DNA of 64,000 nucleotides from an uncultured Ignavibacteriales bacterium (GTDB taxonomy: Bacteria > Zixibacteria > MSB-5A5 > GN15 > JAAZOE01): contig CAZJWR010000009.1 in NCBI GenBank assembly GCA_964549765.1, forward strand, positions 15,442 to 79,441, read 5' to 3'. The position numbers and the translations under genes are program-made. The notes beneath the pieces were generated by a model. That model saw nothing but the letters and a program-made list of their open reading frames with translations, did no database searches and had not been told where the DNA came from. Below are positions 25,896 to 57,540 of this stretch, piece by piece (within the stretch, counting starts at the first letter, position 1; every line of letters starts with the position of its first letter).

Positions 25896-25913
25896 CGGCA
25901 ACGGGGAGTGATC

Positions 25914-41724: not shown

Positions 41725-44489
41725 ATTTTAAGCAGTTATCAAAAATCGCCACGCCGAAGGCGCTACAGGCGTTTCTCGATCGTCACTATGACGGTGCGAT
41801 CGAGAAATTTTACTCAGCCCTGAACGCTGAATCCGATCGCCTTATTCGGACCGATCTCACGCAAGCCCTGCAACTGAATGAGTGGACAGCCGGGCTGGAA
41901 TCGCTCCTCCCGGATAAATACCGCGCTCAGCTCTATCGCATCTGGGGACGGCATGCTCATCTGTCGGGTGATTATCCCCTGGCATTGAAATTGTACAACC
42001 GAGCCATCGGTCTATTTGCCGCCGTCGGAGATCGCAACAGCCGAGCTCGTGTCCAGAAAGCGCTGCTGGACGTACTCGCGTATTTGGGAAAGTATGATCA
42101 GGCCATCGAGGTCGGGCGGCAATCGCTTCGCTTCTACGGACGTATCAAGGCGACGACCGATTATGCCCAGGTGCTGACCAACCTTGGAAATCTCTACCAT
42201 CGTCTCGACGAAAACAAGAAAGCCCTGCGGTACTACGACCGAGCCTATGAGATTTTCAAACATCTGGATAATACCTATGCCCTGGCTCTGGTGCAATTCA
42301 ATCGGGGTAATATCTATTCGAATCTGAACGAACTGGATAAATCGGAACGGCTTTACCGGCAGGCCGGGAAAATATATCGCTCGCTGTCGATGGAACTGGC
42401 CGCGACTCAGGCCGACTATTCCCTCGCGTATATCGCATTCCTTAAGGGGAATTACAGCGAATCACTCGACGCCTTCTCAAGAACGGGCGAGGAATTCCGA
42501 CGCCTCGGCGATAATCGCTGCCTGGCATTGACCGAGCTTGACCGGGCCGAGGTGTATCTGCATCTCAATCTGTACAGTCAGGCTATCGATGATGCGCTGG
42601 CGGTAGCAGACGAATTCGGGCGTTTGAAAATGTCGTACGAGCAGGGGAAATCGTACTATTTTGCTGCCGCCGGGTATTGCGCGTTCGGTGATTTCACGCT
42701 CGGGGGGAAACAGGCGCGCCGCGCCTTAAAGATTTTCGTACACGAGAAAAACCGAGTCTGGCAGGTATTATGTCGGTTCCTGCTCGCCAAGATAGATTTC
42801 CGGGATGGCCGGCTAAAGAGGGCTCTGAGCAATTTTCGAGACATCGCCGATTTTTATAAACGTCACGGCGATATCAGGCAGTATAACGACGTTCGGCTGA
42901 CCTGGCTGGAAGTGTTGATTGCCTCAAAACAATTCCGCGCCGCCGGACGGCTGTCTGTCGGTATCGGAAAAGTGCGGAGACAACTAACCGGCTATCAGCG
43001 CTTCCTCTACTATCTATTGGTCGGAGATCTCAATCGGGATCGCGGAGATACGGGGACGGCGGCCCGATTTTACCGGCGGGCGATCGGGGAAGCCGAGAAA
43101 CTTCAGGAAACGATTTTCCCCGATGAAATCAGACGCTTTTTCTGGATTGATAAGCTGGCCGCATACAATCGCCTGACGGCCGTTTATCTCGAGAAAGGCC
43201 GGACGCGCCAAGCATTCCGGATATTGGAGAAGGGTAAAGCCGCCCTTTTGATGACAGCCGATTTGCGTCTTCCGGCCGGCCGGCCGGTGCCGTTGTCACC
43301 GTCGCTGGAAGCCGAACGCTTGCGCTTGAAGGCGTTTCTCCGCAAGGCGATCATTCCCGCCGGTACGATGTCGCGCGGCGCCTCGGCTGCTCGCCGGGTG
43401 CAATCGGTTGAAAGACGGCTGTGGAAAATCTCGCGGGCTACCCGTGACAAGAGGCGTACATCCATCGGATCCGATCTTGGCGCCCTTCACGATATTGACG
43501 ATATCCAAAGTATCCTCGGCGACTCCGACGTTGTCGTCGAGTACCTGCTCCGAGAGGAGCTATGCGGTGCGTTTGTCATCGACGCCGATGATTTTGCCTT
43601 TCATGTCCTTGACATCGATGTGGAAGAACTCCGTGGCTTGCTGGCCAGATTCTACTTTCTGATCAACAGCGTTTCGACGTGCGACGACGATCGATTAGTC
43701 ATCAGTGACCTGCTAAGGCGGATTTCAGATAAAATCTGGAAGCCGCTGGAGACCGACTTCGATCACATCAAAAACGTCTATCTTGTTCCCGACGGCATCC
43801 TTGGCCGACTGCCGTTTTCCCTTGCCGAGAACACCGATGGTTCCGCCCTATTCGAACGGTATCATCCGTATATATGTTCTTCCTCTTCGACCCTGGCCGG
43901 GCGGCTGTCATCCAGGCAACCCGCGACTCCCTTCACGAGCGTATCCATTTTGACGGCGGCTTCCACCGATCTTCCCGGTGCATTGGCGGAGCGGGTGGCG
44001 GTATCCCGTCATTTTGCCGGGGCCGATATTCACGACGGGAAGGATGCCACCAGCAGCAACCTTTTCCGATCTTTGGAAAAGCGGGGAGGTTCGGTGCATC
44101 TTGCGGCGCACGCCTCGCAGTCGTACGAGAATCCTCTGTTTTCACAGATTCTGCTGGCTGACGGTCCCCTATATACATTTGACCTGTTCTCGCGCCCGGT
44201 TTCAGCCGAGCTGGTTGTTCTTTCCGGCTGTCAGACCGGTGATCCCGGCCTTCACGGCGCGGGGGAGAATTCTTCGCTGGCCGCGGCGTTCCTGGCGGCC
44301 GGGGCCGGAAACATTATAGCCAGTCATTGGCCGGTGGCCGATGAGATTACCGCAGTTTTTATGGATGCATTTTACGCCCACCTCGACCGCCGTAACTATG
44401 TCGCCGCGCTCCGCGCTGCGATGATCGAAACCCGAAACAAATCGGCCAATATCAAACATTGGGCCGCCTTTTATCTGGCGTGCCGTTGA
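41721..44489 (+). CDS. TPR-repeat / CHAT-domain (caspase-like) protease
   Basis: About 560 aa of TPR units (e.g. AQVLTNLGNLYHRLDENKKALRYYDRAYEIF). C-terminal CHAT domain with His context VHLAAHASQS and Cys context ELVVLSGCQTG. Confidence 0.85.
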   Translation: MNFKQLSKIATPKALQAFLDRHYDGAIEKFYSALNAESDRLIRTDLTQALQLNEWTAGLESLLPDKYRAQLYRIWGRHAHLSGDYPLALKLYNRAIGLFAAVGDRNSRARVQKALLDVLAYLGKYDQAIEVGRQSLRFYGRIKATTDYAQVLTNLGNLYHRLDENKKALRYYDRAYEIFKHLDNTYALALVQFNRGNIYSNLNELDKSERLYRQAGKIYRSLSMELAATQADYSLAYIAFLKGNYSESLDAFSRTGEEFRRLGDNRCLALTELDRAEVYLHLNLYSQAIDDALAVADEFGRLKMSYEQGKSYYFAAAGYCAFGDFTLGGKQARRALKIFVHEKNRVWQVLCRFLLAKIDFRDGRLKRALSNFRDIADFYKRHGDIRQYNDVRLTWLEVLIASKQFRAAGRLSVGIGKVRRQLTGYQRFLYYLLVGDLNRDRGDTGTAARFYRRAIGEAEKLQETIFPDEIRRFFWIDKLAAYNRLTAVYLEKGRTRQAFRILEKGKAALLMTADLRLPAGRPVPLSPSLEAERLRLKAFLRKAIIPAGTMSRGASAARRVQSVERRLWKISRATRDKRRTSIGSDLGALHDIDDIQSILGDSDVVVEYLLREELCGAFVIDADDFAFHVLDIDVEELRGLLARFYFLINSVSTCDDDRLVISDLLRRISDKIWKPLETDFDHIKNVYLVPDGILGRLPFSLAENTDGSALFERYHPYICSSSSTLAGRLSSRQPATPFTSVSILTAASTDLPGALAERVAVSRHFAGADIHDGKDATSSNLFRSLEKRGGSVHLAAHASQSYENPLFSQILLADGPLYTFDLFSRPVSAELVVLSGCQTGDPGLHGAGENSSLAAAFLAAGAGNIIASHWPVADEITAVFMDAFYAHLDRRNYVAALRAAMIETRNKSANIKHWAAFYLACR

Positions 44490-44506
44490 TCGGGAGGAAC
44501 TGCACG

Positions 44507-45895
44507 ATGCGACTGACTCGGATATTGCTTCTCATGCTCATCATTCTGCCGGTATATGTGCAGGCAACCGATATATATGTCGACTCCCAAGTGGTATGCC
44601 GGGTCCGGCCTGGAGCCGATCCTGACACCGTGGCAGCGACGGTAGAAGCACTGGTGACCAACGGCATCGAATCCGCCGAGACGTACCTGTTCCAGTATCG
44701 GGTGCCCGCGCCGGTTGACTCGGTGATTCATCTTCTGATCGACAATCCGGATGTTATCGAGGCACACCCCAATTTCATCATACACATTAACCTGGACCAG
44801 GTCAGTCAGCCATTCGTCGACGGCGATCAGACCAACCAGGCCTTCGTCGACGGCATTTCTCCGGCGCATTATTTTGAACAATACGCCGAGGGCAACCTGC
44901 TCATGGATTCGGCGCATCTTATCAACCGGGGAGAAGGCGCCGTGATCGCTATAATCGACGGCGGGTGCGACAACACCAACCCGGTGTTCCAAAACCGGAT
45001 CGACGATGGCAGTTTCGATTTCGTTGATATCGATTATGAACCATGGGTAAATTCCGGCACGACCGGCAACCACGGCACCTTCGTCGCGGGCATCGCGGCC
45101 CGATGCGCTCCCGATGCTTCTCTGATGATCGTGCGCTGCTTCAGCGCCTCCGGGAGCGGTACCAGTTTCGATATCGCCCACGGTATCTATTATGCGGCCG
45201 AGCACGGCGCCGACATCATCAATATGAGCTTCGGAATGGATCGGTATAACTCGACGATAGCCGAAGCCATCGAAGCGGCATATTACCAATACGGGGTGGT
45301 GTTGACAGCCGCGGCCGGAAATTCCGGATTGGAGTTCGATCGTTTCCCCGCTTCGCATCCCTGCGTACTCAATGTGGCCGCAGTGGATTCCGCCGATATC
45401 AAAACCGATTTTTCCAATTATGGGTTCAGTGTCGCCGTGACCGCCCCCGGGGAGAATATCTATAGTTCGCTGGCCGGCGGCAACGTCTGGGGCTGGTGGA
45501 GCGGGACATCGTTCTCCGCTCCGTTTGTGTCCGGTTTGGCGGCGCTATTGAAATCGATGCATCCGGGCGACCCTCCGTACTCCATAATGGAGACAATGGT
45601 ACGGGCATCCGACAATATTGACGAAATCAATCCCGGCTATACGCTGCTGCTCGGGAGCGGTCGGGTTGATTTCCTGAAGACGATTTATCTACCCGGCGAC
45701 GCCAACGGAAGCGGTGGGGTTAATCTGGGAGACGTTGTTTATCTGGTGAACTACATCTTTAAGAGCGGTCCCGAGGCGTTGCCCCCGGAAAGCGGCGACG
45801 CCAATTGCGATGAAACGGTCAATATCGGCGACGCCGTGTTCCTGATCGATTATATTTTCCGGAGCGGAACGGAGCCGGTTCGTTGTGATTGGTGA
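44507..45895 (+). CDS. Secreted subtilisin-family (S8) peptidase with C-terminal dockerin
   Basis: GGGAGGA SD before ATG 44507. Signal peptide [20 protein letters not shown]. Triad contexts AIIDGGCD (Asp), [11 protein letters not shown] (His) and [17 protein letters not shown] (Ser). Dockerin at 45692-45892: [22 protein letters not shown]...[23 protein letters not shown]. Confidence 0.85.
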   Translation: [462 protein letters not shown]

Positions 45896-46450: not shown

Positions 46451-46479
46451 TTGACATCCAGAGTCGCCATATGTATATA
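46451..46479 (+). promoter_or_regulatory. Sigma-70-type promoter of the ArsR-family gene
   Basis: TTGACA (46451-46456), a 17-nt spacer, then TATATA (46474-46479), about 30 nt upstream of ATG 46510. Confidence 0.6.
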
Positions 46480-46499
46480 TATGCGTAGTTTCGCATATA
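46478..46499 (+). promoter_or_regulatory. Perfect 8-6-8 inverted repeat TATATGCG-N6-CGCATATA (putative ArsR-family operator O1)
   Basis: Read directly from the sequence. It overlaps the -10 hexamer and the predicted start site of the regulator gene. Confidence 0.65.
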
Positions 46500-46509
46500 G
46501 GTACTAACG

Positions 46510-46845
46510 ATGATAGAAGATAGAGAACTATTCGATCTGCATGCCGAGTTCTGCAAGCTGATTGCCAGTCCCAGAAGGCTGATGATCATAGAACTCCTGG
46601 CCAGGAAGGAGCTGAGCGTTGGTGAGATTGCTCACGCTCTGGATGTGCCGCATAGCAATGTAAGCCAGCACCTCAGGGTCATGCGCTCGCGTCATATCGT
46701 TGAAGCACGCAGAGACGGGCAGACGGTATACTATAGATTGACCAATGTTCGGCTGCCCGCAGTCTGTGCTGAGATTCGGTCTATCTTGCTGGAAGGTATG
46801 GACATGCGAGGCAAGAAGGCTCGAGGAATGAACAAGAAAAGATGA
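46510..46845 (+). CDS. ArsR/SmtB-family winged-helix transcriptional repressor with two Cys (C15, C86)
   Basis: ASPRRLMIIELLARKELSVGEIAHALDVPHSNVSQHLRVMRSRHIVEARRDGQTVYYRL is the canonical ArsR HTH. The cysteines are at FCKLIASP (before alpha2) and at PAVCAEI (C-terminal helix). Confidence 0.85.
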   Translation: MIEDRELFDLHAEFCKLIASPRRLMIIELLARKELSVGEIAHALDVPHSNVSQHLRVMRSRHIVEARRDGQTVYYRLTNVRLPAVCAEIRSILLEGMDMRGKKARGMNKKR

Positions 46846-46865: not shown

Positions 46866-46887
46866 TATGTGCAATAATGCGCATATA
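46866..46887 (+). promoter_or_regulatory. Second operator-like 8-6-8 dyad TATGTGCA-N6-CGCATATA (O2) upstream of tusA
   Basis: Same geometry and an identical right half-site to O1. The left half matches 6 of 8. It lies in the 87-nt arsR-tusA gap. Confidence 0.5.
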
Positions 46888-46932: not shown

Positions 46933-47187
46933 ATGACACTTGAAGAACTCTTAAACCTGAATGTCAGCAAGATCGTTGACGCTCGCGGCACCGCCTGCCC
47001 CGGTCCATTGCTCGAAGCCAAACGAGGTATGGCCGAAGTCCCCAAGAACGGAATCATGGAAGTGCTATCATCCGACGAAGGGACCAACGATGACATCCCG
47101 CTGTGGTGCAAGAAAGTCGGACATGAGTACCTTGGCAATATCGAGGAAGCGGGTTACTGGAGACTATTCGTTCGCAGGATGAAGTAA
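46933..47187 (+). CDS. tusA: TusA/SirA-family sulfur carrier protein
   Basis: 84 aa with the DARGTACPGPLLEAKRGM motif (conserved Cys-Pro-x-Pro). GGAGAAAGAAG SD. Confidence 0.85.
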   Translation: MTLEELLNLNVSKIVDARGTACPGPLLEAKRGMAEVPKNGIMEVLSSDEGTNDDIPLWCKKVGHEYLGNIEEAGYWRLFVRRMK

Positions 47188-47621
47188 TGGTGTCAACTAC
47201 TACTGACACCGGTTGGGAACCCAGGATACTTGTATTCTCAACCAATAATATCTCGGACCCCGGGATTGATCTGGCTGGCAGTTCACACATGCCTTACTCC
47301 CCCTCGGTGCTGGTGATAGCCGTGCCGTGCTCGAGCGGCATCAAGTCCTCGTGGGTGCTTCACGCGCTTAATGCCGGATTTGATGGCGTATTCATAGCCG
47401 CCGATGGGTCTGACTGTGCTTACCTGCCGGACTGCACGAAACGAACCGGTGAGGTTGTTCAAAGGACGCAGGCGCTTTTGGAGAAAAACAACCTTGATCC
47501 AAGGCGGCTGAAAATGGCGGCAATCTGCTCAGTCTGTGCTGAGTCTTTCCAGTCGCACATGGAGAAATTCAGATCAGCTCTGGTGAAGCTCAGCGCGCCG
47601 CAAGGAAAGGTGGCCCAATGA
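47187..47621 (+). CDS. MvhD/FlpD-like iron-sulfur protein (methyl-viologen-reducing hydrogenase delta-subunit family)
   Basis: ILVFSTNNISDPGIDLAG...VLVIAVPCSSGIKSSWVLHALNAGFDGVFIAADGSDCAYLPDC is the FlpD-domain pattern. The start overlaps the tusA stop (TAATG). Confidence 0.75.
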   Translation: MVSTTTDTGWEPRILVFSTNNISDPGIDLAGSSHMPYSPSVLVIAVPCSSGIKSSWVLHALNAGFDGVFIAADGSDCAYLPDCTKRTGEVVQRTQALLEKNNLDPRRLKMAAICSVCAESFQSHMEKFRSALVKLSAPQGKVAQ

Positions 47622-47641
47622 GGTATTTTATTGTCAGCCAA

Positions 47642-47657
47642 TGTGAATTAATTCACA
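47642..47657. promoter_or_regulatory. Perfect CRP/FNR-family-type palindrome TGTGA-N6-TCACA (TGTGAATTAATTCACA)
   Basis: A 16-bp perfect palindrome in the only sizeable (79-nt) intergenic gap of the operon. Its centre is 51 nt upstream of the hdrL-like ATG. Confidence 0.6.
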
Positions 47658-47700
47658 ATATACAGCCTGCTTCTGATTCTTCCGCGAGAGGCCTAAATAT

Positions 47701-50478
47701 ATGAAATATGACGTATTGGTTGTCGGCGGCGGGATCGCCGGTATGGAATCGTCATTGACCCTGGGAGACATGGGCTACAATGTGCTCCTGGTGGAAAAGG
47801 AGGCCAGCATTGGCGGAAAGATGGTATTGCTCAGCAAGGTATTCCCGACCCTCGATTGTGCAAGTTGCATCTCCACCCCAAAGATGGCGTCTACCGCTCA
47901 CCACCCCAATGTCACCATATCTACATCCACTCAAATCGATGAAATCACCAGGAACAATGGGGGCAACTTCCAGATTAAGCTCCACAAGAAATCCACCTAC
48001 GTCAACTCGGCGGCATGTACGGGGTGTGGTGAGTGTGAGCAGGCCTGCACAGTGGCACGGCCGGATCCGTTCAATTTCGATTTAGTTGCCCACCGGGCAA
48101 TCCATATCCCTTTCCCTCAGGCCGTGCCCAAGAAAGCAGTTATGGTACGGGAAGGAACGTCCCCCTGTTCATTCGCCTGCCCGGCGGGAGTAAAAGCCCA
48201 CGGTTATGTATCCCTGGTGCGCAGCGGCAAATATGACGAGGCGTTTCATCTCCACATGGAAGATGCCCCCCTTCCAGGCAGCCTCAGCCGGGCCTGTTAT
48301 GCTCCATGCGAAGGCGAGTGTACCCGCGGCAAACTGGAAGGTGCCGTTCCCATTCGGGCAATCAAACGCTTCATGGTCGATCGTTACTACGAGAAATACC
48401 CTGAACCGGAATATGGCCCGCCGGAGTTGATCCCCGGGAAAAAAGTTGCCGTCGTAGGTTCCGGTCCGGCAGGACTGTCGGCAGCTTATCATCTGGCTCG
48501 CCGTGGCTACAGCGTCACCGTATTCGAGTCGGCACCTGAACCCGGAGGCATGCTGCGGTACGGCATTCCCGCCTACCGACTGCCGAAAGAGGTGGTAGAT
48601 CGAGATATCAAAAATATCACGGCTCTCGGTGTTCGTATCGTTACCGCGTTGCCGGTTGCGTCCCTGGGTTCGCTGAAAGCGCAGGGGTATGACGCGGTCT
48701 TTCTCGCCGTAGGTACAATAGAAGGAATGAAGATAGCGGTTGAGGGTGAAGAGCTCAACGGTGTCACCGACTGCATGACCTTCTTGAAGCAGGCGAACTC
48801 GGCCGAGGAAATGGATCTGAGCGGGAAAACAGTCATGGTGATAGGTGGCGGAAACGCAGCCATCGATCCCGCCAGGATGGCAATTCGGCTGGGTGCCCAG
48901 AAGGTCATCATACAATATCGGAGAAGTCGAGCCGAAATGCCCGCACACGATTGGGAAGTAGCAGCCGCCCTAGAAGAAGGCGTTACCCTCCAAATTCTGC
49001 GCAATCCGGTGCGTTTCGTCGGGAATAACGGTCGTCTGGAAGCCGTCGAGAGCATAACGATGGAGCTTGGTGAACCAGACGACAGCGGCCGGCGGCGTCC
49101 TATACCGGTAGCAGGTTCAGAGCAGCAGATTCCGGTCGACATGGTGATCCTTGCAATCGGCCTCAAACCAAGTACTTCACCCTTCGCCACCGAGCTTGAT
49201 CTCAATCGAAACGGGACAATCAAGACGAATGAAGAAACGCTCCAGACTTCGATGCCACCCGTCTTCGCCGGAGGCGACGCGGTCACCGGGCCATCCATGA
49301 TTGTCAGTGCGATAGGCCATGGGAAACGCGCGGCCTTCTACATCGACCGATTCCTCAAGGCCGAATCGCTGGAAGGCATCGCGTTCGACAACAAACTCCC
49401 GGTGGTTGACGTAGTTTCGGTTCTGGCGCGGACACACACGAACGGCAACGGCTCCGATCACCGACAATTGCTACCGGTCGTAGGTTTGGAGATACCTCGC
49501 GCACGGATATCCGAGCGTATCGCCACAGAAAAGAAAAAGATTCCCGTATCGCAGCGGATTGGGAGTCTGGCCGAGGTCGAGCTTCCCTTTACTGAGGAAG
49601 AGGCCCGCTACGGTGCGAGCCGGTGCCTGGATTGCGGCGTCTGCTCTGAATGCCATGAATGCGTGAAGGTCTGTCCGGCTCACGCAATTGATTTCAGCCT
49701 GCGGGATGAAACGCTGACGGTCGAAGCAACATCCGTAATCGTGTCAACCGGCTTCAATCTCTTTGATGCCCATCGCAAGCCGACCTATGGCTATGGCAAG
49801 ATCCCCAATGTCATCACGGCGATGCAAATGGACCGCATATTGGCCCCTACCCGTCCCTTCAATGGCGTCATCAGACCGTCCGACGGCAAGGCCCCCGACA
49901 ACATAGCTTATGTCTTGTGTGCCGGCTCCCGAGATCAAAGCGTCGATAATGCGCTGTGTTCCCGAGTCTGCTGTATGTATTCCCTCAAGCAGGCTCAATT
50001 GGTGATGGGATCTCTGCCGCTGGCGGATATTACCATTTACTACATTGATATTCGGGCCTTTGGTAAGGGCTACGAGGAGTTCTACCAGCAGGCCAGGGGA
50101 ATGGGAATTTACTTTGTCAAGGGCAGGGTGGCTCAGATTGACCAATTGGATAACGGTAATCTGGATGTGCAATACGAGGCGATAGACGCCGACGGCGGAC
50201 TCAGGCACATGGAACACGATCTGGTTGTGCTTTCTACCGGCTTTGCGCCGAATCTTGACGCGTTCCGGATGTTCAAAGACGGCAATCTGGACGCAGACGC
50301 TCATGCGTATGTGCGGGAGATCGACGAAGATATCAACCCGGGACGAACAAGTATAAACGGAGTGTTTGTCGCCGGTGCCGCCTCTACTCCCAGAGATATC
50401 CCTGACAGCATACTTCACGCGGGCGCGGCCGTTGCTCAGGCGGCCGCGTACTTACAGAGAATGAGGATTAGCCGATGA
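47701..50478 (+). CDS. HdrA-like flavoprotein with an inserted GltD/NfnB-like NAD(P)H:FAD oxidoreductase module (HdrL-type)
   Basis: HdrA N-terminus YDVLVVGGGIAGMESSLTLGDMGYNVLLVEKEASIGGKM, CTGCGECEQAC, AIHIPFPQAVP. Insert of about aa 150-555 with KKVAVVGSGPAGLSAAYHLARRGYSVTVFESAPEPGGMLRYGIPAYRLPKEV, VMVIGGGNAAID, VFAGGDAVTGPSMIVSAIGHGKRAA. HdrA C-terminus CLDCGVCSECHECVKVCP, VIVSTGF...YGYGKIPNVIT, VFVAGAASTPRDIPDSI. Confidence 0.85.
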   Translation: MKYDVLVVGGGIAGMESSLTLGDMGYNVLLVEKEASIGGKMVLLSKVFPTLDCASCISTPKMASTAHHPNVTISTSTQIDEITRNNGGNFQIKLHKKSTYVNSAACTGCGECEQACTVARPDPFNFDLVAHRAIHIPFPQAVPKKAVMVREGTSPCSFACPAGVKAHGYVSLVRSGKYDEAFHLHMEDAPLPGSLSRACYAPCEGECTRGKLEGAVPIRAIKRFMVDRYYEKYPEPEYGPPELIPGKKVAVVGSGPAGLSAAYHLARRGYSVTVFESAPEPGGMLRYGIPAYRLPKEVVDRDIKNITALGVRIVTALPVASLGSLKAQGYDAVFLAVGTIEGMKIAVEGEELNGVTDCMTFLKQANSAEEMDLSGKTVMVIGGGNAAIDPARMAIRLGAQKVIIQYRRSRAEMPAHDWEVAAALEEGVTLQILRNPVRFVGNNGRLEAVESITMELGEPDDSGRRRPIPVAGSEQQIPVDMVILAIGLKPSTSPFATELDLNRNGTIKTNEETLQTSMPPVFAGGDAVTGPSMIVSAIGHGKRAAFYIDRFLKAESLEGIAFDNKLPVVDVVSVLARTHTNGNGSDHRQLLPVVGLEIPRARISERIATEKKKIPVSQRIGSLAEVELPFTEEEARYGASRCLDCGVCSECHECVKVCPAHAIDFSLRDETLTVEATSVIVSTGFNLFDAHRKPTYGYGKIPNVITAMQMDRILAPTRPFNGVIRPSDGKAPDNIAYVLCAGSRDQSVDNALCSRVCCMYSLKQAQLVMGSLPLADITIYYIDIRAFGKGYEEFYQQARGMGIYFVKGRVAQIDQLDNGNLDVQYEAIDADGGLRHMEHDLVVLSTGFAPNLDAFRMFKDGNLDADAHAYVREIDEDINPGRTSINGVFVAGAASTPRDIPDSILHAGAAVAQAAAYLQRMRISR

Positions 50479-52199
50479 CGGAACGAAGGATTGGCGTCTA
50501 CATTTGCCATTGCGGCGGCAACATCTCAGACTATGTTGACGTAGACAGAGTCCGGGAAGGAGTAGCACATGACGAAGGCGTGGTTGTGGCCAAGACGACC
50601 ATGTTTGCGTGTTCTGATGCCGCTCAGGAGGAGATGATCGAGGATATCAGGACCAATAATCTAGACGGCATCGTCATCGCCTCATGTTCTCCGAAGCTTC
50701 ACCTCTTTACGTTCCGTGCGATGGCGGAGCGGGCGGGATTGAATCCATATCAGTACGTGCAGGTTAACCTCAGGGAGCAGGATTCCTGGGCTCATCAACA
50801 TGATTTGGACAGAGCCACCGAGAAAGGGATCAGGCTGGTGAAAGCCGGAATCGCCCGTTGCGCCCTGACCGCTCCTCTCACCACTATGAGAATCGAAACA
50901 ACTCCGAAAGTTCTTGTTATCGGCGCGGGGGTTGCTGGACTGCGAGCGGCGCTCTCGCTTTCCGATATGGGCTTTACCGTTTTCGTTATTGAGAGAGAAG
51001 CTGCCGTCGGGGGGTGGACGGGTCAGTTCGGGGGTATGTTTCCGAACGATCGCATCGGGTCTGATCTTGTGAGCAGTCTATATGCAGATGCCAAGAAGTG
51101 GGACAATATCACAATCTTCACCAGGGCCGAGCTGATTGCGAAAAGCGGCAACGTTGGGGCCTTTGAAGTAGTCATTAATATCAACAAGCGAGAGACTATT
51201 AAGCTCGACGTTGGCACGATCGTTGTGGCGACAGGTTTTGATGTTTACCGGCCGGCAGCCGGTGAATTCGGTTATGGGCAGCCGGGCGTTATCACGCTTC
51301 CGGACTTCAAACAGCTCGTGGACCGTTCGACCGGGCCGCTCACCTACCAGGGCCGCGCAGTAGAAGACATTGCCTACATCTACTGTGTCGGCAGTCGGCA
51401 GTCGGCAGACGGCGACAATGCGAATCGTTACTGTTCACGATACTGCTGTACCGCGGCCGTTCACACCTCTTTGACTATGCACAAGAGAGATGAGACTACG
51501 CACCACTTTCATCTTTATCGCGACATGCGGACATACGGCAAGTATGAGCTGCTGTATCTGGATTCGCTCAACAACGGCTCCGCATTTCTGAAATATGCCG
51601 ACGATGACCCTCCTGCGGTGACTCTCGCGGGAAACAGACTGCGCGTCACGGTGCGCGATCAACTAACTCAGGGAGAGGAATTCGACATCGATGTCGACCT
51701 GGTCGTGCTGGTAACGGGGATGGTGCCGCGAGAAAACAAGAATCTTGTCGACGTCCTCAAACTTCCCATCGCTATGGATGGCTTCTTCAATGAGATCCAT
51801 CCCAAGCTCAGACCGGTTGAGACGGTCATTGATGGGGTCTTCATTGCCGGTGCATCTCAAGGTCCCAAGACACTGGCTGAAAGTGTGGCTTCATCCATGG
51901 CGGCCGTATCAAAGAGCGCCGCACTGCTGATGAAGGGATATGTTGATCTCGAGCCTCTGATCGCTACCATCGACAGCGACAAATGTTCCTGGTGCGATGA
52001 ATGCACAAAGGCGTGCCCATATGATGCCATTGAAAATGTATCCGTGGACGGCGAAGAGGTTGCACGGATCATCCCCGCTCTGTGCAAAGGAGGCGGGGCA
52101 TGTGTTCCCGTGTGTCCGCGCGACGCGATCGAAGTGAAGGGGTACACGGATGCCCAGATAATTGCAACGATTGATTCTCTGATCAAAGAGGTTGGCTGA
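50475..52199 (+). CDS. hdrA: HdrA/QmoB-like FAD and Fe-S flavoprotein with C-terminal 2x[4Fe-4S] ferredoxin domain
   Basis: IGVYICHCGGNISDYVDVD, VLVIGAGVAGLRAALSLSDMGFTVFVIEREAAVGG, IVVATGFDVY, VFIAGASQGPKTLAESV, CSWCDECTKACP, CKGGGACVPVCP. ATGA overlap with the previous gene. Confidence 0.85.
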   Translation: MTERRIGVYICHCGGNISDYVDVDRVREGVAHDEGVVVAKTTMFACSDAAQEEMIEDIRTNNLDGIVIASCSPKLHLFTFRAMAERAGLNPYQYVQVNLREQDSWAHQHDLDRATEKGIRLVKAGIARCALTAPLTTMRIETTPKVLVIGAGVAGLRAALSLSDMGFTVFVIEREAAVGGWTGQFGGMFPNDRIGSDLVSSLYADAKKWDNITIFTRAELIAKSGNVGAFEVVININKRETIKLDVGTIVVATGFDVYRPAAGEFGYGQPGVITLPDFKQLVDRSTGPLTYQGRAVEDIAYIYCVGSRQSADGDNANRYCSRYCCTAAVHTSLTMHKRDETTHHFHLYRDMRTYGKYELLYLDSLNNGSAFLKYADDDPPAVTLAGNRLRVTVRDQLTQGEEFDIDVDLVVLVTGMVPRENKNLVDVLKLPIAMDGFFNEIHPKLRPVETVIDGVFIAGASQGPKTLAESVASSMAAVSKSAALLMKGYVDLEPLIATIDSDKCSWCDECTKACPYDAIENVSVDGEEVARIIPALCKGGGACVPVCPRDAIEVKGYTDAQIIATIDSLIKEVG

Positions 52200-52438
52200 T
52201 GAATAATAGAATTGAGCGCGATACGGCAGAGGCGATGAGGGATGAAATGATGATGAAAGACAAGATTCTCGCTCTCCTGAAAGACGACCCCGGAACGATA
52301 CCTGAGATCGCCCAGGCGCTTGAGTGTTCGACCAGTTCTGTCGTGTACTGGATAATGGCGATGTGGAGATATGGTTCCGTGGAAGCCGTCGGCAAACCGG
52401 ATGACAAAGGATATTACAGGTACCGCCCCGTTTCGTAA
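52199..52438 (+). CDS. Small winged-helix-like protein, unknown role
   Basis: 79 aa. KILALLKDDPGTIPEIAQALECSTSSVVYWIMAMWRYGSVEAVG looks like a wHTH. The start overlaps the hdrA stop (TGATG). Confidence 0.45.
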   Translation: MNNRIERDTAEAMRDEMMMKDKILALLKDDPGTIPEIAQALECSTSSVVYWIMAMWRYGSVEAVGKPDDKGYYRYRPVS

Positions 52439-52447
52439 GGAGAAGTC

Positions 52448-52759
52448 ATGGCTGCCGTAGATACAAAGTTTGTAGATGAAGTCAACTCTTCAAAATCGTT
52501 CAATGCCGCTGCCTGCATGAATTGCGGCGTCTGTACCGCCGTTTGCCCGATGGAGCTGGACCTGCTGCCGCGACGGCTTTTTCGTTATGCGGTCATTGGC
52601 GTTGAGGAGAAAATTCTGGAACATCGGGAAACGATATTTTCCTGCCTAATGTGCCGGATGTGCGAGCAAAACTGCCCCGCCGGGGTCAGGATCAGCGAAA
52701 ACGTGCGTATCCTGCGCGGCTACATCAACCGAACCGTCTTTGGGTTATCGAGGAAATAG
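52448..52759 (+). CDS. hdrC: HdrC-like 2x[4Fe-4S] ferredoxin subunit
   Basis: 103 aa with CMNCGVCTAVCP and CLMCRMCEQNCP. Confidence 0.8.
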   Translation: MAAVDTKFVDEVNSSKSFNAAACMNCGVCTAVCPMELDLLPRRLFRYAVIGVEEKILEHRETIFSCLMCRMCEQNCPAGVRISENVRILRGYINRTVFGLSRK

Positions 52760-52762
52760 ATC

Positions 52763-53797
52763 ATGGCGTTACCTACCGAACACGTTCTGGGGATACTGGT
52801 GGATAATCTTTTGAGGCGCGGAAGTGTCCTCCGGCTGTCGCCCCGCACCGCCGTCAGGTGGTCACAGGGATTGAACATACCCAAGGGCGGGAAGACCGTC
52901 ATATATACCGGTCATATGTATCAGTTGATTCCAGCCATCTCCGCTCTGGCGACAAAAATGGCCTATTTTGAGAACTCCTGGATGACAAGATTCTTCGGTC
53001 TGGGACGCATTGCCAATAGATTTATCAACCTGGCGTGGTTTCTGGCGCGAACTGATTCCCCGGAGACCGAGCATTATAACAACATCCTGCGAAACATCGC
53101 ACGGCTATTACAGGCGGCAGGAATCGAATTTGGATATCTCTACGAAGAAGAGATGTATTCGGGAGCCCTTGTGCACGACGAGGGTGTTGACGACGCTTTC
53201 GTAACACATGCCGAAAGGGTTGTTAAAGTCTTCAGACGTAACGGAGTGAAATCTGTTATCACCGTGGATCCTCATACCACGAATATGCTTCGAAGCGTCT
53301 ATCCGGTGTACTGCAAGGACTATGACCTGGAAGTGAAAAGCTACCTTGAGGTATTGGCTGAAAGCGATATCGAGCCGGCGCGGCTACTAAACCTCGATGT
53401 GACGATTCACGACTCCTGCGTGTACGCTCGCTATGAGAACATTGTCATGGAACCTCGACAATTGCTTACGAAGGCCGGCGCGACGCTCCGCGAACCTGAA
53501 AACGCGGGGAAGCTCACACACTGCTGCGGCGGACCGATAGAATCGTTTTTCCCTGACAAGGCGAAAGCCATTGCAGCCAAGAGGGTGAAACAGCTCGCTG
53601 CCACAGGAGGCAATGTAATTGCAATGTGCCCGATCTGTCTGGTGAATCTCAAACATGCGGCACAGGATATCGATGCGGACGTGGCTGACATCTCAGAATT
53701 GCTGGTAGAAGCTTATGGTGACTTCGGATCAGCACGGTCGACGCGTCCGGTACGCAAATCAAATCAAAAAGAAGGCGAGGTTCTTACCTATGGATGA
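52763..53797 (+). CDS. hdrB: HdrB/HdrD-like CCG-domain (noncubane Fe-S) subunit
   Basis: Two Cys-rich CCG-type motifs (TIHDSCVYARY and LTHCCGGPIESF; MCPICLVNL). The gene lies 3 nt after hdrC. Confidence 0.8.
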   Translation: MALPTEHVLGILVDNLLRRGSVLRLSPRTAVRWSQGLNIPKGGKTVIYTGHMYQLIPAISALATKMAYFENSWMTRFFGLGRIANRFINLAWFLARTDSPETEHYNNILRNIARLLQAAGIEFGYLYEEEMYSGALVHDEGVDDAFVTHAERVVKVFRRNGVKSVITVDPHTTNMLRSVYPVYCKDYDLEVKSYLEVLAESDIEPARLLNLDVTIHDSCVYARYENIVMEPRQLLTKAGATLREPENAGKLTHCCGGPIESFFPDKAKAIAAKRVKQLAATGGNVIAMCPICLVNLKHAAQDIDADVADISELLVEAYGDFGSARSTRPVRKSNQKEGEVLTYG

Positions 53798-54164
53798 GGC
53801 AAACGTTGAAAAGATGGTCATCGTGGCAACGCACGGATGTGAGGACCCGGAGAGGGCGTGTCTGCCATTCGTGCTGGCGAACGCTGCGCTGGCCATGGAC
53901 ACTCATGCAGTGGTTATTCTTCAGGGGACTGCGGTTACCTTGGCGAAGAAGGGCTGCTATGAGCATGTATTTGCGGCCGGTCTGCCAGCCCTTAAGGAGT
54001 TGGTTGATTCCTTCTTGGAACTCGGAGGCAGCCTCCTGGTCTGCAGCCCCTGCATTCAGGAACGACACATCACATCTGATATGTTGGTTAAGAACGCACA
54101 GCCAATAAAAGCGGCCAGGGTCGTAATGGAGCTGCTCGAGGCAAAAGCTACCTTGAGTTATTAA
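53790..54164 (+). CDS. dsrE: DsrE/DsrF-family sulfur-transfer protein
   Basis: KMVIVATHGCEDPERACLPFVLANAALAMDTHAVVILQGTAV...LLVCSPC. 8-nt overlap with the hdrB-like gene. Confidence 0.75.
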   Translation: MDEANVEKMVIVATHGCEDPERACLPFVLANAALAMDTHAVVILQGTAVTLAKKGCYEHVFAAGLPALKELVDSFLELGGSLLVCSPCIQERHITSDMLVKNAQPIKAARVVMELLEAKATLSY

Positions 54165-54181: not shown

Positions 54182-55003
54182 ATGTTTGCTATAGCTATAT
54201 CTCGAGGTTCGCTGAGCGCGGCCTCCAAACTGGCTGAAGGGCTGCAGGCAAAATGGGGCGGGACAATCGTCGCTCGCGAAGAGGTGATCAAAGCGGCCGA
54301 AGCCTTTGGGTTAGAGGAAACAGGACTTCGGGAAGAACATATCCTCGGGCAACACGCCCCCGGATTCTGGGAACGTTACGCCGACGCCCGAAAACACTAC
54401 CTGGCCTGCTTCAGGGCCGCCTTACTTGATTTCGTGCTCAAAGGATCACTGATTTACCACGGCAACCTCGCCCACATCCTTCTCAACAATATTCCTTTCG
54501 TTCTGCGGGTCAGGGTAAACGCCCCGTTCGAAAATCGGGTGAAAATGTTGGTTGCTGAACAGGGCTTGTCGGAGGCAGATGCCGTTGCGAAGATAACGGA
54601 GATTGACAAGCAGAGGAGACGTTGGGTGCAGTTTCTCTACGACGTCGACACGCGGGACCCTATCTTGTTCGATATAGTCCTCAATCTCCAAAGAATGACC
54701 ATTGACGACGCAATTGAGCTGGTCGGCTCTGAGGTGAAGAAAGACCGATTTCAGTCGAGTGAAAAATCCTTGAAGATAGTCCGCGATTTGCACCTGGCAT
54801 CGCTGGCGGAAATCGCTTTGATGCACTCTACCGATACATACGGTCTGGATCTCAGAGTACAAGCAGATGAAAGTACGGGTGAAGTTGTGATTGTCCGGGC
54901 CCCGGAGTTAACAGAGAGTGCAGTCTCCGACGACGTTATTCGAGCCGCCCTGGAAAATGTGAAGGAAATCAAGAACGTCCTAATCGGAAAGACGCCCGAC
55001 TAG
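54182..55003 (+). CDS. Cytidylate-kinase-like family protein with BON-like C-terminus (third paralog)
   Basis: AIAISRGSLSAASKLAEGLQAKWGGTIVAREEVI, YHGNLAHILL...LRVRVNAPFENRVKMLV...RRRWVQFLYDVDTRDPILFDIVLNL. C-terminus LRVQADESTGEVVIVRAPELTE...ENVKEIKNVLI. Confidence 0.7.
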   Translation: MFAIAISRGSLSAASKLAEGLQAKWGGTIVAREEVIKAAEAFGLEETGLREEHILGQHAPGFWERYADARKHYLACFRAALLDFVLKGSLIYHGNLAHILLNNIPFVLRVRVNAPFENRVKMLVAEQGLSEADAVAKITEIDKQRRRWVQFLYDVDTRDPILFDIVLNLQRMTIDDAIELVGSEVKKDRFQSSEKSLKIVRDLHLASLAEIALMHSTDTYGLDLRVQADESTGEVVIVRAPELTESAVSDDVIRAALENVKEIKNVLIGKTPD

Positions 55004-55116
55004 AACGAAGTGGCGGTCGTCACATCCGGTTACCGGTCAACACTTGCCACGGATACTGAGCTGATACGGTATCTCCTTGACGATTGGGCCATCGCCTAAA
55101 CTCCGGAGTGGGACAA

Positions 55117-56472
55117 ATGGAACATGAACAGGAAGATTCTCAGTGTGACAAGCTTGTCACCGTCGTTGACAGTATCTCCGATGGTGTTCTTGCTGTCGAC
55201 CTTGACAGGCGCATAACGTTTATGAATCAGGCTGCCGCGCGTATCTCCGGCTATTCTCCGGACGAGGCCATGGGTAAACATTGCTGGGAGGTTTTTCACA
55301 CCAACGTATGCGAAGACAGTTGCCCGCTCAAACGTGCCATGAATGGTGCGGCCTCAACCGTCAACAGGCCCGTATGTATTACTAATAAAGAGGGTAAGCG
55401 CGTCCCGGTAAGCATCTCGGCAACGCTGTTGAGGGATCGACGGGGGACAATAATAGGCGGCGTAGAGACTCTCCGAGACCTTGACCTGGTCAGGCAGTTG
55501 CAACGGGAGTATGAGTCACAGTACGTTTTTGAGGATATGATGAGCCGCAGCAAGAAGGTGAGAGATATCTTCGATATCATTCCGGCCATAGCAGAGAGCG
55601 AAAGCACGGTTCTCATTGAAGGTGAAAGCGGAACCGGAAAGGAACTTATTGCCAGGGCAATTCATAACCTCAGTCCCCGGAAAGATGGACCCTTTGTCGC
55701 GCTCAACTGCGGGGCTATTCCCGACAATCTCCTTGAGTCCGAGCTTTTTGGCTATGTAGCAGGCGCCTTTACGGATGCAAAGAAAGACAAAAAGGGGAGG
55801 TTTGCAATCGCCGCAGGAGGTACTTTGCTCCTGGATGAGATTGGCGATGTGTCTCAGGCGATGCAGGCCAAACTGCTGCGTGTACTTCAAGAAAAACTCT
55901 ATGAACCATTGGGCGCAACAGAATCTGCGGCCTCCGACGTTCGCGTATTAGCAGCGACAAACAAGAGGTTGGATGACCTTGTAGAGAAGGGTAGTTTCCG
56001 AAGAGATCTGTATTATCGCATTAACGTCATGCGCGTGCGGCTGCCTTCATTGAGGGAAAGAAGAGAAGATATCCCCCTGCTGGCCGACCACTTCGTTGAT
56101 CGATTCAACCGTCTTCACCATAAAAACGTCCCGGGGTTCTCACCTCCGGCCCTGGGGCTACTTCTGAATCATGATTTCCCCGGGAATGTCAGAGAACTGG
56201 AGAACATCGTCGAGCATGCGTCGGTGCTGTGCGGCGAAGGCATAATAAGGCCGGAACATCTTCCCGAGTATCTGAGGGGCGACCGACCGGTTCCAGCCAT
56301 AGAAATCGCAGGAACGTTTGCCGAGATGGAAGCTCTGTTCCTGATTGGAGCTTTGAAAAGGAACAATTGGTCGCGCAAAGATACTGCCGCAGAAATCGGC
56401 ATCAATCCCTCCACACTCTATAGAAAAATCAAAAAACTCGGTTTGAAACTGCCACCAAGCCAGGAACAATAA
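55117..56472 (+). CDS. Sigma-54-dependent transcriptional activator (PAS, AAA+, Fis-type HTH)
   Basis: PAS: ITFMNQAAARISGYSPDEAMGKHCWEVF. AAA+: VLIEGESGTGKELIARAIH, ESELFGYVAGAFTDA, GGTLLLDEIG, RVLAATN, FRRDLYYRI. HTH: RKDTAAEIGINPSTLYRKIKKLGL. Confidence 0.9.
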   Translation: MEHEQEDSQCDKLVTVVDSISDGVLAVDLDRRITFMNQAAARISGYSPDEAMGKHCWEVFHTNVCEDSCPLKRAMNGAASTVNRPVCITNKEGKRVPVSISATLLRDRRGTIIGGVETLRDLDLVRQLQREYESQYVFEDMMSRSKKVRDIFDIIPAIAESESTVLIEGESGTGKELIARAIHNLSPRKDGPFVALNCGAIPDNLLESELFGYVAGAFTDAKKDKKGRFAIAAGGTLLLDEIGDVSQAMQAKLLRVLQEKLYEPLGATESAASDVRVLAATNKRLDDLVEKGSFRRDLYYRINVMRVRLPSLRERREDIPLLADHFVDRFNRLHHKNVPGFSPPALGLLLNHDFPGNVRELENIVEHASVLCGEGIIRPEHLPEYLRGDRPVPAIEIAGTFAEMEALFLIGALKRNNWSRKDTAAEIGINPSTLYRKIKKLGLKLPPSQEQ

Positions 56473-56537: not shown

Positions 56538-56648
56538 CGATCGTAATATATACCCCTGATCATACGCCTCCAACACAACTTGCTTGCGCATCCATATCTG
56601 CCGACTATTCAATGAGATAGATGGCCTCAGAACCGTTGTCGATGCTGT

Positions 56649-56664
56649 TGGCACATCTTATGCA
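56649..56664 (+). promoter_or_regulatory. Sigma-54 (-24/-12) promoter
   Basis: TGGCAC-ATCTT-ATGCA versus the consensus TGGCAC-N5-TTGCA. GG to GC spacing is exact. It lies about 40 nt upstream of AAGGAG plus ATG 56705. Confidence 0.7.
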
Positions 56665-56704
56665 TGGGACCACTTCAGTGATAGTGATGAGAAAGGAGCA
56701 AGAT

Positions 56705-57319: not shown

Positions 57320-57540
57320 TCCCGTATTGCTTATCATGAGTACACCACGATTCAGCAGAGAGCGAGGTCGTCGAGCCAAACGCACGGCAGCCTCGCTCAA
57401 CCAGCGGCTTAGCCTGTCCAGAGTCACCCTTGTGGTGAGCAGGCGATGTCGGCCACGAGCAGTGACGGCGTGGCAATCGGGTTGTGCCAGCGGGCAAACG
57501 TACCCGCATGCCCAACTTGAGTTGTGAGGAGATAATTAGA

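Follow-up and report, generated by a model that had tools for sequence, protein, structure and literature searches.

What reaction might be catalysed by a set of heterodisulfide reductase (Hdr)-like proteins that is encoded together with two sulfur carriers? The question is raised by a 64-kb stretch of DNA from an uncultured Ignavibacteriales bacterium, placed by GTDB in the Zixibacteria (contig CAZJWR010000009.1, positions 15,442 to 79,441), which at its full length is here called the window. Its positions 46933-54164 carry eight genes in the order tusA-mvhD-hdrL-hdrA-wHTH-hdrC-hdrB-dsrE, where wHTH is a small winged-helix protein. In the energy metabolism of anaerobes, Hdr-type complexes have a central place as means of conserving energy, and to our knowledge only few of them have a known substrate. 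The explanation favoured here, with a confidence a little short of even, is that the operon encodes a soluble multi-subunit Hdr-like reductase that would use NADPH to reduce sulfane sulfur, in the form of protein persulfide or polysulfide. From the observed gene content, cofactor motifs, synteny, domain complementarity, NADPH motif and palindromes, a complex with its electron path, substrate, reaction direction and regulation is proposed.

Gene content and conservation of the cluster

The cluster comprises eight open reading frames (ORFs), all on the + strand, with the following coordinates, lengths in amino acids (aa) and profile or structure matches.

46933-47187, + strand: TusA, 84 aa (Pfam TusA, 1.6e-20)
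47187-47621, + strand: MvhD/FlpD-like iron-sulfur protein, 144 aa (Pfam FlpD, 1.8e-27)
47701-50478, + strand: HdrL, 925 aa (Pfam Pyr_redox_2, 1.6e-46; Fer4_20, 4.6e-17)
50475-52199, + strand: HdrA, 574 aa (NCBIfam HdrA2; PDB alignment to 5odc_A)
52199-52438, + strand: winged-helix protein, 79 aa (Pfam HTH_27, 1.5e-6)
52448-52759, + strand: HdrC-like ferredoxin, 103 aa (Pfam Fer4_17, 2.5e-11)
52763-53797, + strand: HdrB-like CCG protein, 344 aa (Pfam CCG, 9.6e-14)
53790-54164, + strand: DsrE, 124 aa (Pfam DsrE, 6.3e-13)

An earlier note, made by reading the sequence alone, had described these eight genes, and all of them were found in the ORF list where it placed them. Its domain assignments are backed throughout by Pfam and NCBIfam profile searches. 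The single HdrC/HdrB pair and the two different HdrA-type flavoproteins that it reported are seen in the window (NCBIfam HdrA2 models match HdrL and HdrA both at about 1e-142), and its built-in NAD(P)H module is recovered in HdrL by the Fer4_20 and Pyr_redox_2 matches. The junctions are tight as it described, with 1-nucleotide (nt) overlaps at TusA/FlpD and HdrA/wHTH, a 4-nt ATGA overlap at HdrL/HdrA, gaps of 9 nt between wHTH and HdrC and of 3 nt between HdrC and HdrB, and an 8-nt overlap of HdrB and DsrE. However, the tightness is not uniform, as FlpD and HdrL are separated by 79 nt. The DsrE start is an ATG inside the 8-nt overlap, and orthologues of the protein are 120-125 aa long. A generic terminator scan found no + strand terminator inside the cluster.

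For the distribution of the cluster, one genome per species was scanned with an HdrB-like pattern, and the HdrB-like gene was present in 446 of the 185,579. The protein has 1879 relatives in a 5.8-billion-protein set, and 199 representatives at 50% identity match it at E<=1e-30 in an exhaustive search. The best 80 of the 446 matches were taken as loci (handles beginning with L), in which gene presence was scored by tblastn with the window proteins; presence ratios count only loci long enough. The nearest genomes are Zixibacteria metagenome-assembled genomes (MAGs), with 79-90% amino-acid identity over the cluster, and among the best 80 loci the cluster is spread over about 15 bacterial phyla. 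Hosts include Zixibacteria, Ignavibacteria, Calditrichota, Nitrospirota, LCP-89, Chloroflexota (14 of the 80 loci), Kiritimatiellales/Pontiella (11 of 80), other Verrucomicrobiota, Lentisphaerae, Desulfobacterota (Desulfobacterales), Myxococcota, Acidobacteriota, Planctomycetota, Spirochaetota, Rhodoferax, Bacteroidales, Gemmatimonadota and candidate phyla. Among the Bacillota, the hosts are Desulfotruncus arcticus, Desulfotruncus alcoholivorax and Desulfoscipio geothermicus.

The order and spacing of tusA-mvhD-hdrL-hdrA-wHTH-hdrC-hdrB are near-invariant over the 80 loci, in the Zixibacteria MAGs as well as in distant phyla. TusA is present in the same position in 53/55 loci, FlpD in 54/56, HdrL in 54/57, HdrA in 64/64, the winged-helix gene in 68/69 and HdrC in 74/74. 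An arrangement repeated with this order and spacing in dozens of loci across many phyla lies well outside what chance would give. Neighbour clusters 10, 14, 21 and 25 were antisense ORFs over the core genes and were discarded. Two local irregularities were observed. On a Chloroflexota-like contig (L003 4941-7683), HdrL is called as two ORFs of 487 and 420 aa, which could reflect a frameshift, a sequencing error or a pseudogene. In Pontiella sulfatireligans F21, IS200-like (Y1 transposase) fragments lie directly 3' of hdrB (L036 10116-11236).

With the window protein as query, DsrE was detected in only about half of the loci. This apparent absence is an artefact of subfamily divergence: the remaining loci carry instead a DrsE_2-type (PF13686) or divergent DsrE gene, upstream of tusA in Pontiella (L036 2575-3129) and downstream of hdrB in Desulfotruncus (L049 10092-10577). 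Once DrsE_2-type queries were added, all loci with full coverage (46/46) were seen to have a same-strand gene of the DsrE superfamily. The earlier note had named failure of TusA and DsrE to be conserved with the hdr genes as grounds for abandoning its sulfur-relay proposal, and had asked whether the cluster recurs in related MAGs; both co-conservation and recurrence are seen. That a DsrE-superfamily gene is always present despite changes of subfamily and position suggests that the sulfur carriers are integral to the system.

The residues expected to carry sulfur are strongly conserved. In TusA, the active-site Cys22 lies in a CPGP motif and is invariant in 54 orthologues. In DsrE, the active-site C85 lies in a CxPC motif and is kept in 100% of orthologues, with C88 kept in 93%. 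The window DsrE is DsrE3-like, its sole PDB match being DsrE3A SSO1125 (3mc3, 1.2e-5), and the TusA also matches YedF models of NCBIfam weakly.

Redox subunits and the direction of electron flow

HdrL and HdrA both resemble the HdrA of the methanogen complex solved as 5ODC, with E-values of about 1e-115 and 1e-101, but they cover different parts of it. In the PDB alignment, HdrL 5-149 aligns with 5odc_A 146-289 and HdrL 643-920 with 288-567, while HdrL 154-654 aligns end to end with NfnA/NfnB-type proteins (NfnA 9n5u, 3e-106). As the flanking parts align with 5ODC and the middle part with NfnA/NfnB-type proteins, an NfnB/GltD-type NADPH-FAD-[4Fe-4S] module is, on this alignment, predicted to be inserted inside the 'inserted ferredoxin domain' of HdrA. 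HdrL lacks the N-terminal and C-terminal ferredoxin domains. The 574-aa HdrA aligns over 1-234 with 5odc_A 1-234 and over 239-572 with 314-652; it has the N-terminal Fe-S, FAD and C-terminal ferredoxin domains and lacks the inserted ferredoxin domain. The two proteins are complementary halves that together cover the full HdrA domain set. Since each paralogue supplies the HdrA domains that are missing from the other, an asymmetric HdrL-HdrA heterodimer is suggested. A DCxxC motif is kept in HdrL (98%) and replaced in HdrA. In the second cluster motif of the C-terminal ferredoxin domain, HdrA residues 537-547 read CKGGGACVPVCP, with three Cys, where the equivalent methanogen HdrA motif is CKGCGTCPAGCP, with four Cys. 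The three-Cys form is conserved in HdrA orthologues and hints at a [3Fe-4S] cluster or a cluster with non-Cys ligation.

In HdrL, the module has what defines the NfnB/GltD type: a Fer4_20 domain with cysteines for Fe-S binding, paired Rossmann folds for FAD and NAD(P), and the YRR motif. C156, C160, C199, C203 and C207 are invariant in 57 orthologues, and Y406-R407-R408 is kept in 60-90% of them. The corresponding Y310-R311-R312 of NfnB and the YRR of DsrL-2 hold the 2'-phosphate of NADPH and correlate with NADPH specificity (PMC7596348). In some loci the module is exchanged: NuoE/NuoF/NuoG-N-like genes and a polyferredoxin-HdrA-C protein replace the NfnB-like part in L012 (1695-5320), L020 (239-4272) and L035 (719-2059), and in L013 (2283-6534) HdrL is split around a 2Fe-2S/4Fe-4S protein. 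The Nuo-like replacements suggest that pyridine-nucleotide input is kept while the module that provides it is exchanged. By comparison of the loci, HdrA, wHTH, HdrC and HdrB with TusA/DsrE appear as the conserved output module.

Iron-sulfur ligands are also conserved in the smaller subunits. C48, C77, C83, C114 and C117 of MvhD/FlpD are invariant in 56 orthologues. The HdrC-like protein has eight Cys that are invariant in 77 orthologues, enough for 2x[4Fe-4S]; it matches NCBIfam HdrC models (3e-12) over positions 14-99 of 192, and is without the C-terminal half of canonical HdrC.

The HdrB-like protein departs further from its namesake. It has one Pfam CCG match only, at residues 213-297, where the motif C219, C254, C255, C289 and C292 is 100% conserved in 79 orthologues. 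In the same alignment, the N-terminal half appears as a pseudo-CCG domain with no conserved Cys and with invariant YTGxMYQ and ITVDPHTT motifs, the DPHT aligning with CPHC of the canonical first CCG domain. Longer relatives (400-440 aa) carry an N-terminal extension of about 100-130 residues and read as putative HdrC-HdrB fusions of HdrD type. The best NCBIfam matches are the C-terminal part of TfrB (5e-20) and LdhH (4e-14), and in a PDB profile search Mycobacterium smegmatis EtfD (9ojn) is found at 6e-16 and HdrB (7bkb_B) at 0.65. A Foldseek search with the AlphaFold2 (AF2) model (predicted template modelling score, pTM, 0.82) retrieves EtfD first (E 8e-12, template modelling score, TM, 0.64), then LutA, with methanogen HdrB third (E 1.4e-5, TM 0.49). 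Thus, of the earlier designation as an HdrB-like CCG subunit, the CCG domain stands, but canonical HdrB does not, given the single CCG motif and the closer resemblance to EtfD, LutA, TfrB and LdhH. The note had named grouping with GlpC/LutA-type Fe-S subunits as a reason to drop its proposal; these matches neither clearly put the protein there nor clearly keep it out. By its sequence and predicted fold, the protein is best regarded as a distinct CCG family, and it is the presumed catalytic subunit.

The same resemblance, seen in both sequence and fold, counts against a sulfane-sulfur reductase, as some of EtfD, TfrB, LdhH and LutA act on non-sulfur substrates. It gives room to a reading in which the substrate is not inorganic sulfur: a low-molecular-weight or protein disulfide, a selenium species handled by TusA/YedF-like and DsrE-like carriers, or a substrate of hydroxy-acid or electron-transfer-flavoprotein (ETF) type. 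Further support for this reading comes from the NCBIfam model 'diclust_near_Sec' (NF045663), which matches HdrL at 1.7e-51 and the HdrB-like protein at 3e-11, and by the weak YedF match of TusA; metal-type regulators (ArsR, CsoR) and an ArsP_2 exporter near some loci would also fit. Against this, the cluster is always linked to TusA and a DsrE-family protein, whose cysteines for carrying persulfide are invariant, rhodanese-TusA-DsrE/CoA-disulfide reductase (CoADR)-like fusion genes lie beside it in six loci, four of them Kiritimatiellales/Pontiella, and genes for lactate, glycolate, glycerol-3-phosphate or ETF metabolism are not conserved nearby. A substrate other than inorganic sulfur is therefore given a low probability.

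In the favoured explanation, a sulfane-sulfur reductase, NADPH would be oxidised at the NfnB/GltD-type module of HdrL, and electrons would pass through the FAD and Fe-S clusters of the module and the ferredoxin-type clusters of HdrL into the asymmetric HdrL-HdrA heterodimer. From an HdrA-type FAD they would reach the two [4Fe-4S] clusters of the short HdrC and then the single CCG-type cluster of the HdrB-like protein. At this cluster, a persulfide bound to the active-site Cys of TusA and/or DsrE might be split between its two sulfur atoms, which would release H2S and regenerate the carrier thiol. The C-terminal ferredoxin domain of HdrA together with MvhD may form a second electron port that either reduces ferredoxin, by flavin-based bifurcation, or takes electrons from it. 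The winged-helix protein would be a structural or adaptor subunit. The role of the whole may be removal of sulfane sulfur from the cytoplasm, or the use of elemental sulfur (S0) or polysulfide as an electron sink by anaerobes.

How much energy such a complex could conserve is a separate matter. S0/H2S lies near -270 mV and NADP+/NADPH near -320 mV. As the potential gap from NADPH to S0/H2S is small, ferredoxin reduction by bifurcation is doubtful, and this too weighs on the proposal. A bolder version, that of a flavin-based electron-bifurcating NADPH:persulfide/ferredoxin oxidoreductase, built on the HdrL-HdrA heterodimer and the one-cluster CCG subunit, is considered unlikely. Such a complex, a widespread enzyme class described in none of the papers found, would allow anaerobes of about 15 phyla, fermentative ones included, to gain energy from the reduction of S0 or polysulfide in the cytoplasm by producing reduced ferredoxin. 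It would also supply the sulfur reductase that is missing in Kiritimatiellales, Planctomycetes and comparable 'non-sulfur' fermenters.

The reaction could in principle run the other way. As in sHdr, the CCG subunit would then convert sulfane sulfur from TusA/DsrE into sulfite, and NADP+ and/or ferredoxin would be reduced via HdrA/HdrL. It is consistent with this that sHdr is likewise accompanied by TusA, DsrE3-type proteins and an ArsR-type regulator (PMC11094781), that DsrE3A is the one PDB match of the window DsrE, and that a TauE/SafE-type exporter gene is found in the window at 25908-26984; this gene, however, is 20 kb from the cluster and not conserved with it. Against it, HdrC and HdrB are encoded once only, with one CCG cluster, where sHdr has two pairs, and no gene for a lipoate-binding protein was found nearby. 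The hosts include obligate fermenters and sulfate reducers, and on general grounds the reduction of NADP+ or ferredoxin with electrons from sulfane sulfur is energetically unfavourable. In DsrL-2, moreover, the YRR/NADPH signature is tied to the reductive direction (PMC7596348). The evidence favours reduction over oxidation, and the oxidative reading is judged quite improbable.

Regulation, neighbouring genes and physiology

Features outside the eight genes that bear on expression, and the genes immediately downstream, none of them mentioned in the earlier note, are as follows.

46451-46456 and 46474-46479, + strand: candidate promoter just upstream of arsR, TTGACA and TATATA with a 17-nt spacer (sequence reading)
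46473-46485 and 46492-46504, + strand: arms of a palindrome, ATATGCG-N6-CGCATAT, overlapping the putative arsR promoter (inverted-repeat search)
46510-46845, + strand: ArsR/SmtB-family regulator, 111 aa (Pfam HTH_5, 1.4e-12)
46867-46886, + strand: ATGTGCA-N6-CGCATAT, an inexact repeat of the palindrome in the arsR-tusA interval
54182-55003, + strand: cytidylate-kinase-like protein, 273 aa (Pfam Cytidylate_kin2, 8.3e-25)
55084-56472, + strand: PAS-sigma54 activator (Pfam)
56621-57058, + strand: DUF2173 protein (Pfam)

The palindrome recurs before arsR and before tusA in Zixibacteria/Ignavibacteria loci. A TTGACA...TATGCG-N6 motif is also present upstream of arsR in L004, L007, L009 and L010, the exact ATATGCG-N6-CGCATAT lies in L007 at 3103-3122, 45 nt before tusA, and close variants of the pre-tusA palindrome are seen in L004, L006, L009 and L010. 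The copy at 46867-46886 is thus a candidate operator of the tusA-dsrE operon. A stricter generic promoter scan did not list the TTGACA/TATATA promoter, and the promoter/terminator scan was at background level.

Across 31 orthologues of the ArsR protein, C86 is always kept and C15 in 74%. Repressors of the BigR, SqrR and sHdrR kind have a conserved pair of cysteines, one in the N-terminal helix and one in alpha-5, which become joined as a di- to tetrasulfide; the two Cys of the window protein, one N-terminal and one C-terminal in position, are compatible with a candidate thiol- or persulfide-sensing repressor of BigR/SqrR type, its PDB matches including SmtB, BigR (3pqj) and SqrR (6o8l). Such an ArsR would repress the operon at the ATATGCG-N6-CGCATAT sites until modified by sulfane sulfur. 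Several findings speak against this part of the proposal: C15 is absent in a quarter of the orthologues, arsR is found upstream in 29/49 loci and missing in 20/49, and in the PDB search the protein matches metal sensors (SmtB, CzrA) better than BigR/SqrR. In NCBIfam it likewise matches HTH_metalloreg at 1.7e-24 and the BigR model at 1.9e-17, with 63 bits versus a cutoff of 155. In Bacillota loci, ArsR is absent and a CsoR-family (PF02583) regulator is divergent from tusA (L049 2662-3000, - strand); a CsoR-family regulator is also found in L068, L083, L079 and L003. The CsoR family includes the persulfide sensor CstR.

PAS-sigma54 activators near the cluster (17 loci) and DUF2173 proteins (11 loci) are possible additional regulators; they occur on either side in L004, L006, L007, L009-L011, L016, L017, L032, L041 and L081. 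Matches to a sigma54 promoter (TGGCAC-N5-TTGCW) were at chance level, with none upstream of the operon.

For the 79-aa winged-helix protein, the role of a dedicated subunit or adaptor is more probable than that of a regulator, because it is acidic (median isoelectric point 5.3 versus 8.9 for ArsR proteins) and always inside the operon. Its family size, 1616, is close to the 1879 of the HdrB-like protein. The AF2 model (predicted local distance difference test, pLDDT, 86) has three helices and a wing, but fold matches are generic ArsR/MarR/Z-alpha proteins only. No sequence match was found in a PDB search, and no conserved Cys in the orthologue alignment. DNA binding, which would count against a structural role, could also be a function of this protein.

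Among genes downstream, one family points, by its domains, to sulfane-sulfur handling. In its full-length form it is an 820-aa fusion (L051 11882-14344) of a CoA-disulfide/persulfide-reductase-like part with rhodanese, TusA and DrsE_2 domains; it is also found in L028 and L053 and in shorter forms in L029, L033 and L057. Four of these six loci are labelled Kiritimatiellales/Pontiella, and L029 and L057 are not. In Kiritimatiellales, a few kb separate the cluster from the 820-aa fusion gene on its downstream side, with genes for FadL-like outer-membrane and DUF4405 membrane proteins near the fusion gene.

In the window, the gene that follows dsrE after 17 nt is the cytidylate-kinase-like one, which is downstream in 13/69 loci from several phyla and is a possible accessory gene of the cluster. 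It is one of three PF13189 cytidylate-kinase-like paralogues in the window: 24393-25895 (+), 28989-29822 (-) and 54182-55003 (+). One of the paralogues has a BON domain, and that at 24393-25895 is directly followed by the TauE/SafE-type sulfite-exporter-like gene at 25908-26984 (+).

Cultured hosts bring physiology to bear on the choice of substrate. P. sulfatireligans F21 has the full cluster (L036) and, during sugar fermentation, reduces elemental sulfur, as P. desulfatans and K. glycovorans likewise do; its genome is reported to be without Psr, other molybdoenzymes and Dsr, and the mechanism was called unclear by the authors (PMC7356697). In S. fumaroxidans, an 'HdrABC/HdrL' was detected in proteomes only with sulfate, and DsrC was suggested as its partner (PMC5947623). 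The sulfur reduction of P. sulfatireligans and the sulfate dependence of the S. fumaroxidans HdrABC/HdrL both support the sulfane-sulfur reductase.

The suggested partner allows another reading, in which NAD(P)H would serve to reduce a DsrC disulfide or trisulfide and TusA/DsrE would be accessory only. Reduction of a DsrC-type 'bacterial heterodisulfide' has reportedly been proposed for FlxABCD-HdrABC. The abundance of the S. fumaroxidans HdrABC/HdrL only with sulfate (PMC5947623) agrees with such a function, as does the occurrence of the cluster in Desulfotruncus, Desulfoscipio and Desulfobacterales genomes. Most hosts of the 80 loci, however, are not known sulfate or sulfite reducers, and P. 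sulfatireligans F21 has the cluster and reportedly no Dsr pathway genes (PMC7356697). The universally linked thiol proteins are TusA and the DsrE family, with no DsrC-like family among the annotated recurrent neighbours, several low-count families lying outside that annotation. A DsrC-directed complex thus appears a poor candidate.

A biosynthetic function, the mobilisation of sulfide or persulfide for Fe-S clusters, thionucleosides and cofactors in anaerobes, was also weighed. In E. coli, TusA carries sulfur for biosynthesis (NCBIfam TusA model), and TrmO-like and radical-SAM genes are near a few loci, although biosynthesis-type neighbours are rare (4-5 loci). A flavin/Fe-S machine of five to six subunits with two HdrA paralogues seems oversized for a biosynthetic flux, and the regulators are stress-type or ligand-sensing repressors. 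The patchy occurrence of the cluster, in the 446 of 185,579 species genomes, likewise argues against a housekeeping function. This reading is regarded as highly improbable.

Large-ORF annotation covered the cluster genes, the flanking genes and the 40 largest window ORFs, in which the other large ORFs are glycoside hydrolases, proteases, transporters and surface proteins with a type IX secretion system (T9SS) tail. No dsr, apr, sox, sqr, hydrogenase, flox or lipoate-binding genes were found among them, in line with the earlier statement that LbpA, hydrogenase, flox and apr are missing. A 1690-aa FG-GAP/BACON protein with a cohesin domain and a T9SS sorting tail is encoded at 35124-40196 (-), and a subtilase with a dockerin domain at 44459-45895 (+), beside a CHAT-TPR protein (41721-44489). 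The cohesin protein and the dockerin subtilase could be a pairing outside the cellulosome context. A gene for an OsmC-like thiol peroxidase is found within a few kb of the cluster in the window (57484-57975) and in at least one distant locus (L003 15791-16207).

Relationship to known Hdr-type and sulfane-sulfur systems

The earlier note had supposed that this composition was uncharacterised. A literature search found no biochemistry and no description of the cluster with TusA/DsrE, but the Hdr core had already been named: by composition, the cluster matches the label 'HdrABC/HdrL'. That set is known from sulfate reducers as Sfum_0819-0824 of S. fumaroxidans (PMC5947623), and locus VIII of D. 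autotrophicum HRM2 has tandem hdrL/hdrA4-hdrC-hdrB with mvhD (PMC2702500). When compared by published composition, not by sequence, both sets have HdrL (a fusion of HdrA and glutamate-synthase type, with an NAD(P)H site), a second HdrA, HdrC, HdrB and MvhD, with no hydrogenase. The loci of sulfate reducers differ in having genes for an FdhB-like Fe-S protein or formate dehydrogenase and another gene order, and their descriptions are without TusA, DsrE, the small winged-helix protein and ArsR, the proposed partner being DsrC. No earlier description was found of the obligatory link to TusA/DsrE, the CCG subunit with its one cluster, the dedicated winged-helix protein or the wide distribution.

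Membership in the methanogen Hdr, sHdr, Flox-Hdr and Qmo types was rejected, as their defining features or genes are missing. With the methanogen MvhAGD-HdrABC (5ODC), the cluster shares the HdrA FAD and Fe-S domains, MvhD, HdrC-type 2x[4Fe-4S] and a CCG-fold subunit. However, methanogen HdrA is one polypeptide with all domains, which the window splits over HdrL and HdrA; methanogen HdrB has two CCG motifs (two non-cubane [4Fe-4S]), whereas the HdrB-like protein has one; and the HdrC-like protein is half the length of methanogen HdrC. The methanogen complex takes electrons from a hydrogenase or formate dehydrogenase and acts on CoM-S-S-CoB. In the present cluster, whose hosts are bacteria, an NADPH module of NfnB type stands in for the hydrogenase, and the thiol proteins linked to it are TusA and DsrE. 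No hydrogenase or formate dehydrogenase genes were found among the large window ORFs or recurrent neighbours.

With sHdr (hdrC1B1A-hyp-hdrC2B2), the linkage to TusA, DsrE3-type proteins and an ArsR-type regulator is shared, as is a small gene between hdrA and hdrC (PMC11094781). sHdr also has LbpA, DsrE2/DsrE3 and the regulator sHdrR, it depends on lipoate-binding proteins, and its hosts are sulfur oxidisers. It is without HdrL, MvhD and the NADPH module, and has two HdrC/HdrB pairs versus one in the window and all related loci. No LbpA or lipoate-ligase gene was found among the cluster, the flanking genes, the 40 largest window ORFs or the annotated recurrent neighbour families. Two different HdrA paralogues are shared with QmoABC and QmoAB-HdrCB, where Gram-positive sulfate reducers add HdrC/HdrB (PMC10504309). 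Qmo differs in QmoC and its linkage to aprBA, whereas the window has the NADPH module in HdrL, TusA, MvhD and DsrE. Neither the QmoC membrane haem subunit nor aprBA was found among the large window ORFs or recurrent neighbours.

The module of NfnAB, GltD and DsrL-2 is kept in HdrL with its Fe-S cysteines and YRR; however, instead of forming a subunit of its own next to NfnA or DsrAB, it is here inserted into a flavoprotein of HdrA type. The same chemistry as proposed here, pyridine-nucleotide-driven reduction of sulfane sulfur on a sulfurtransferase domain, is ascribed to Npsr, CoA-persulfide reductase and CoADR-rhodanese fusions. These are single flavoproteins with a redox-active cysteine and an unrelated fold and cofactors, so the resemblance is functional only.

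A persulfide or polysulfide reductase of this kind, if real, would explain sulfur reduction by fermenters without Psr and Dsr, an open question for Pontiella. It would also provide an oxygen-independent route for the detoxification of reactive sulfur and a new metagenomic marker for cryptic sulfur cycling. As cultured hosts exist (P. sulfatireligans F21, D. arcticus, D. alcoholivorax and D. geothermicus), the hypothesis is directly testable. In its composition, the cluster differs from every characterised Hdr type by the NADPH module in one HdrA paralogue, the one-cluster CCG subunit, the winged-helix protein and the association with TusA and DsrE.

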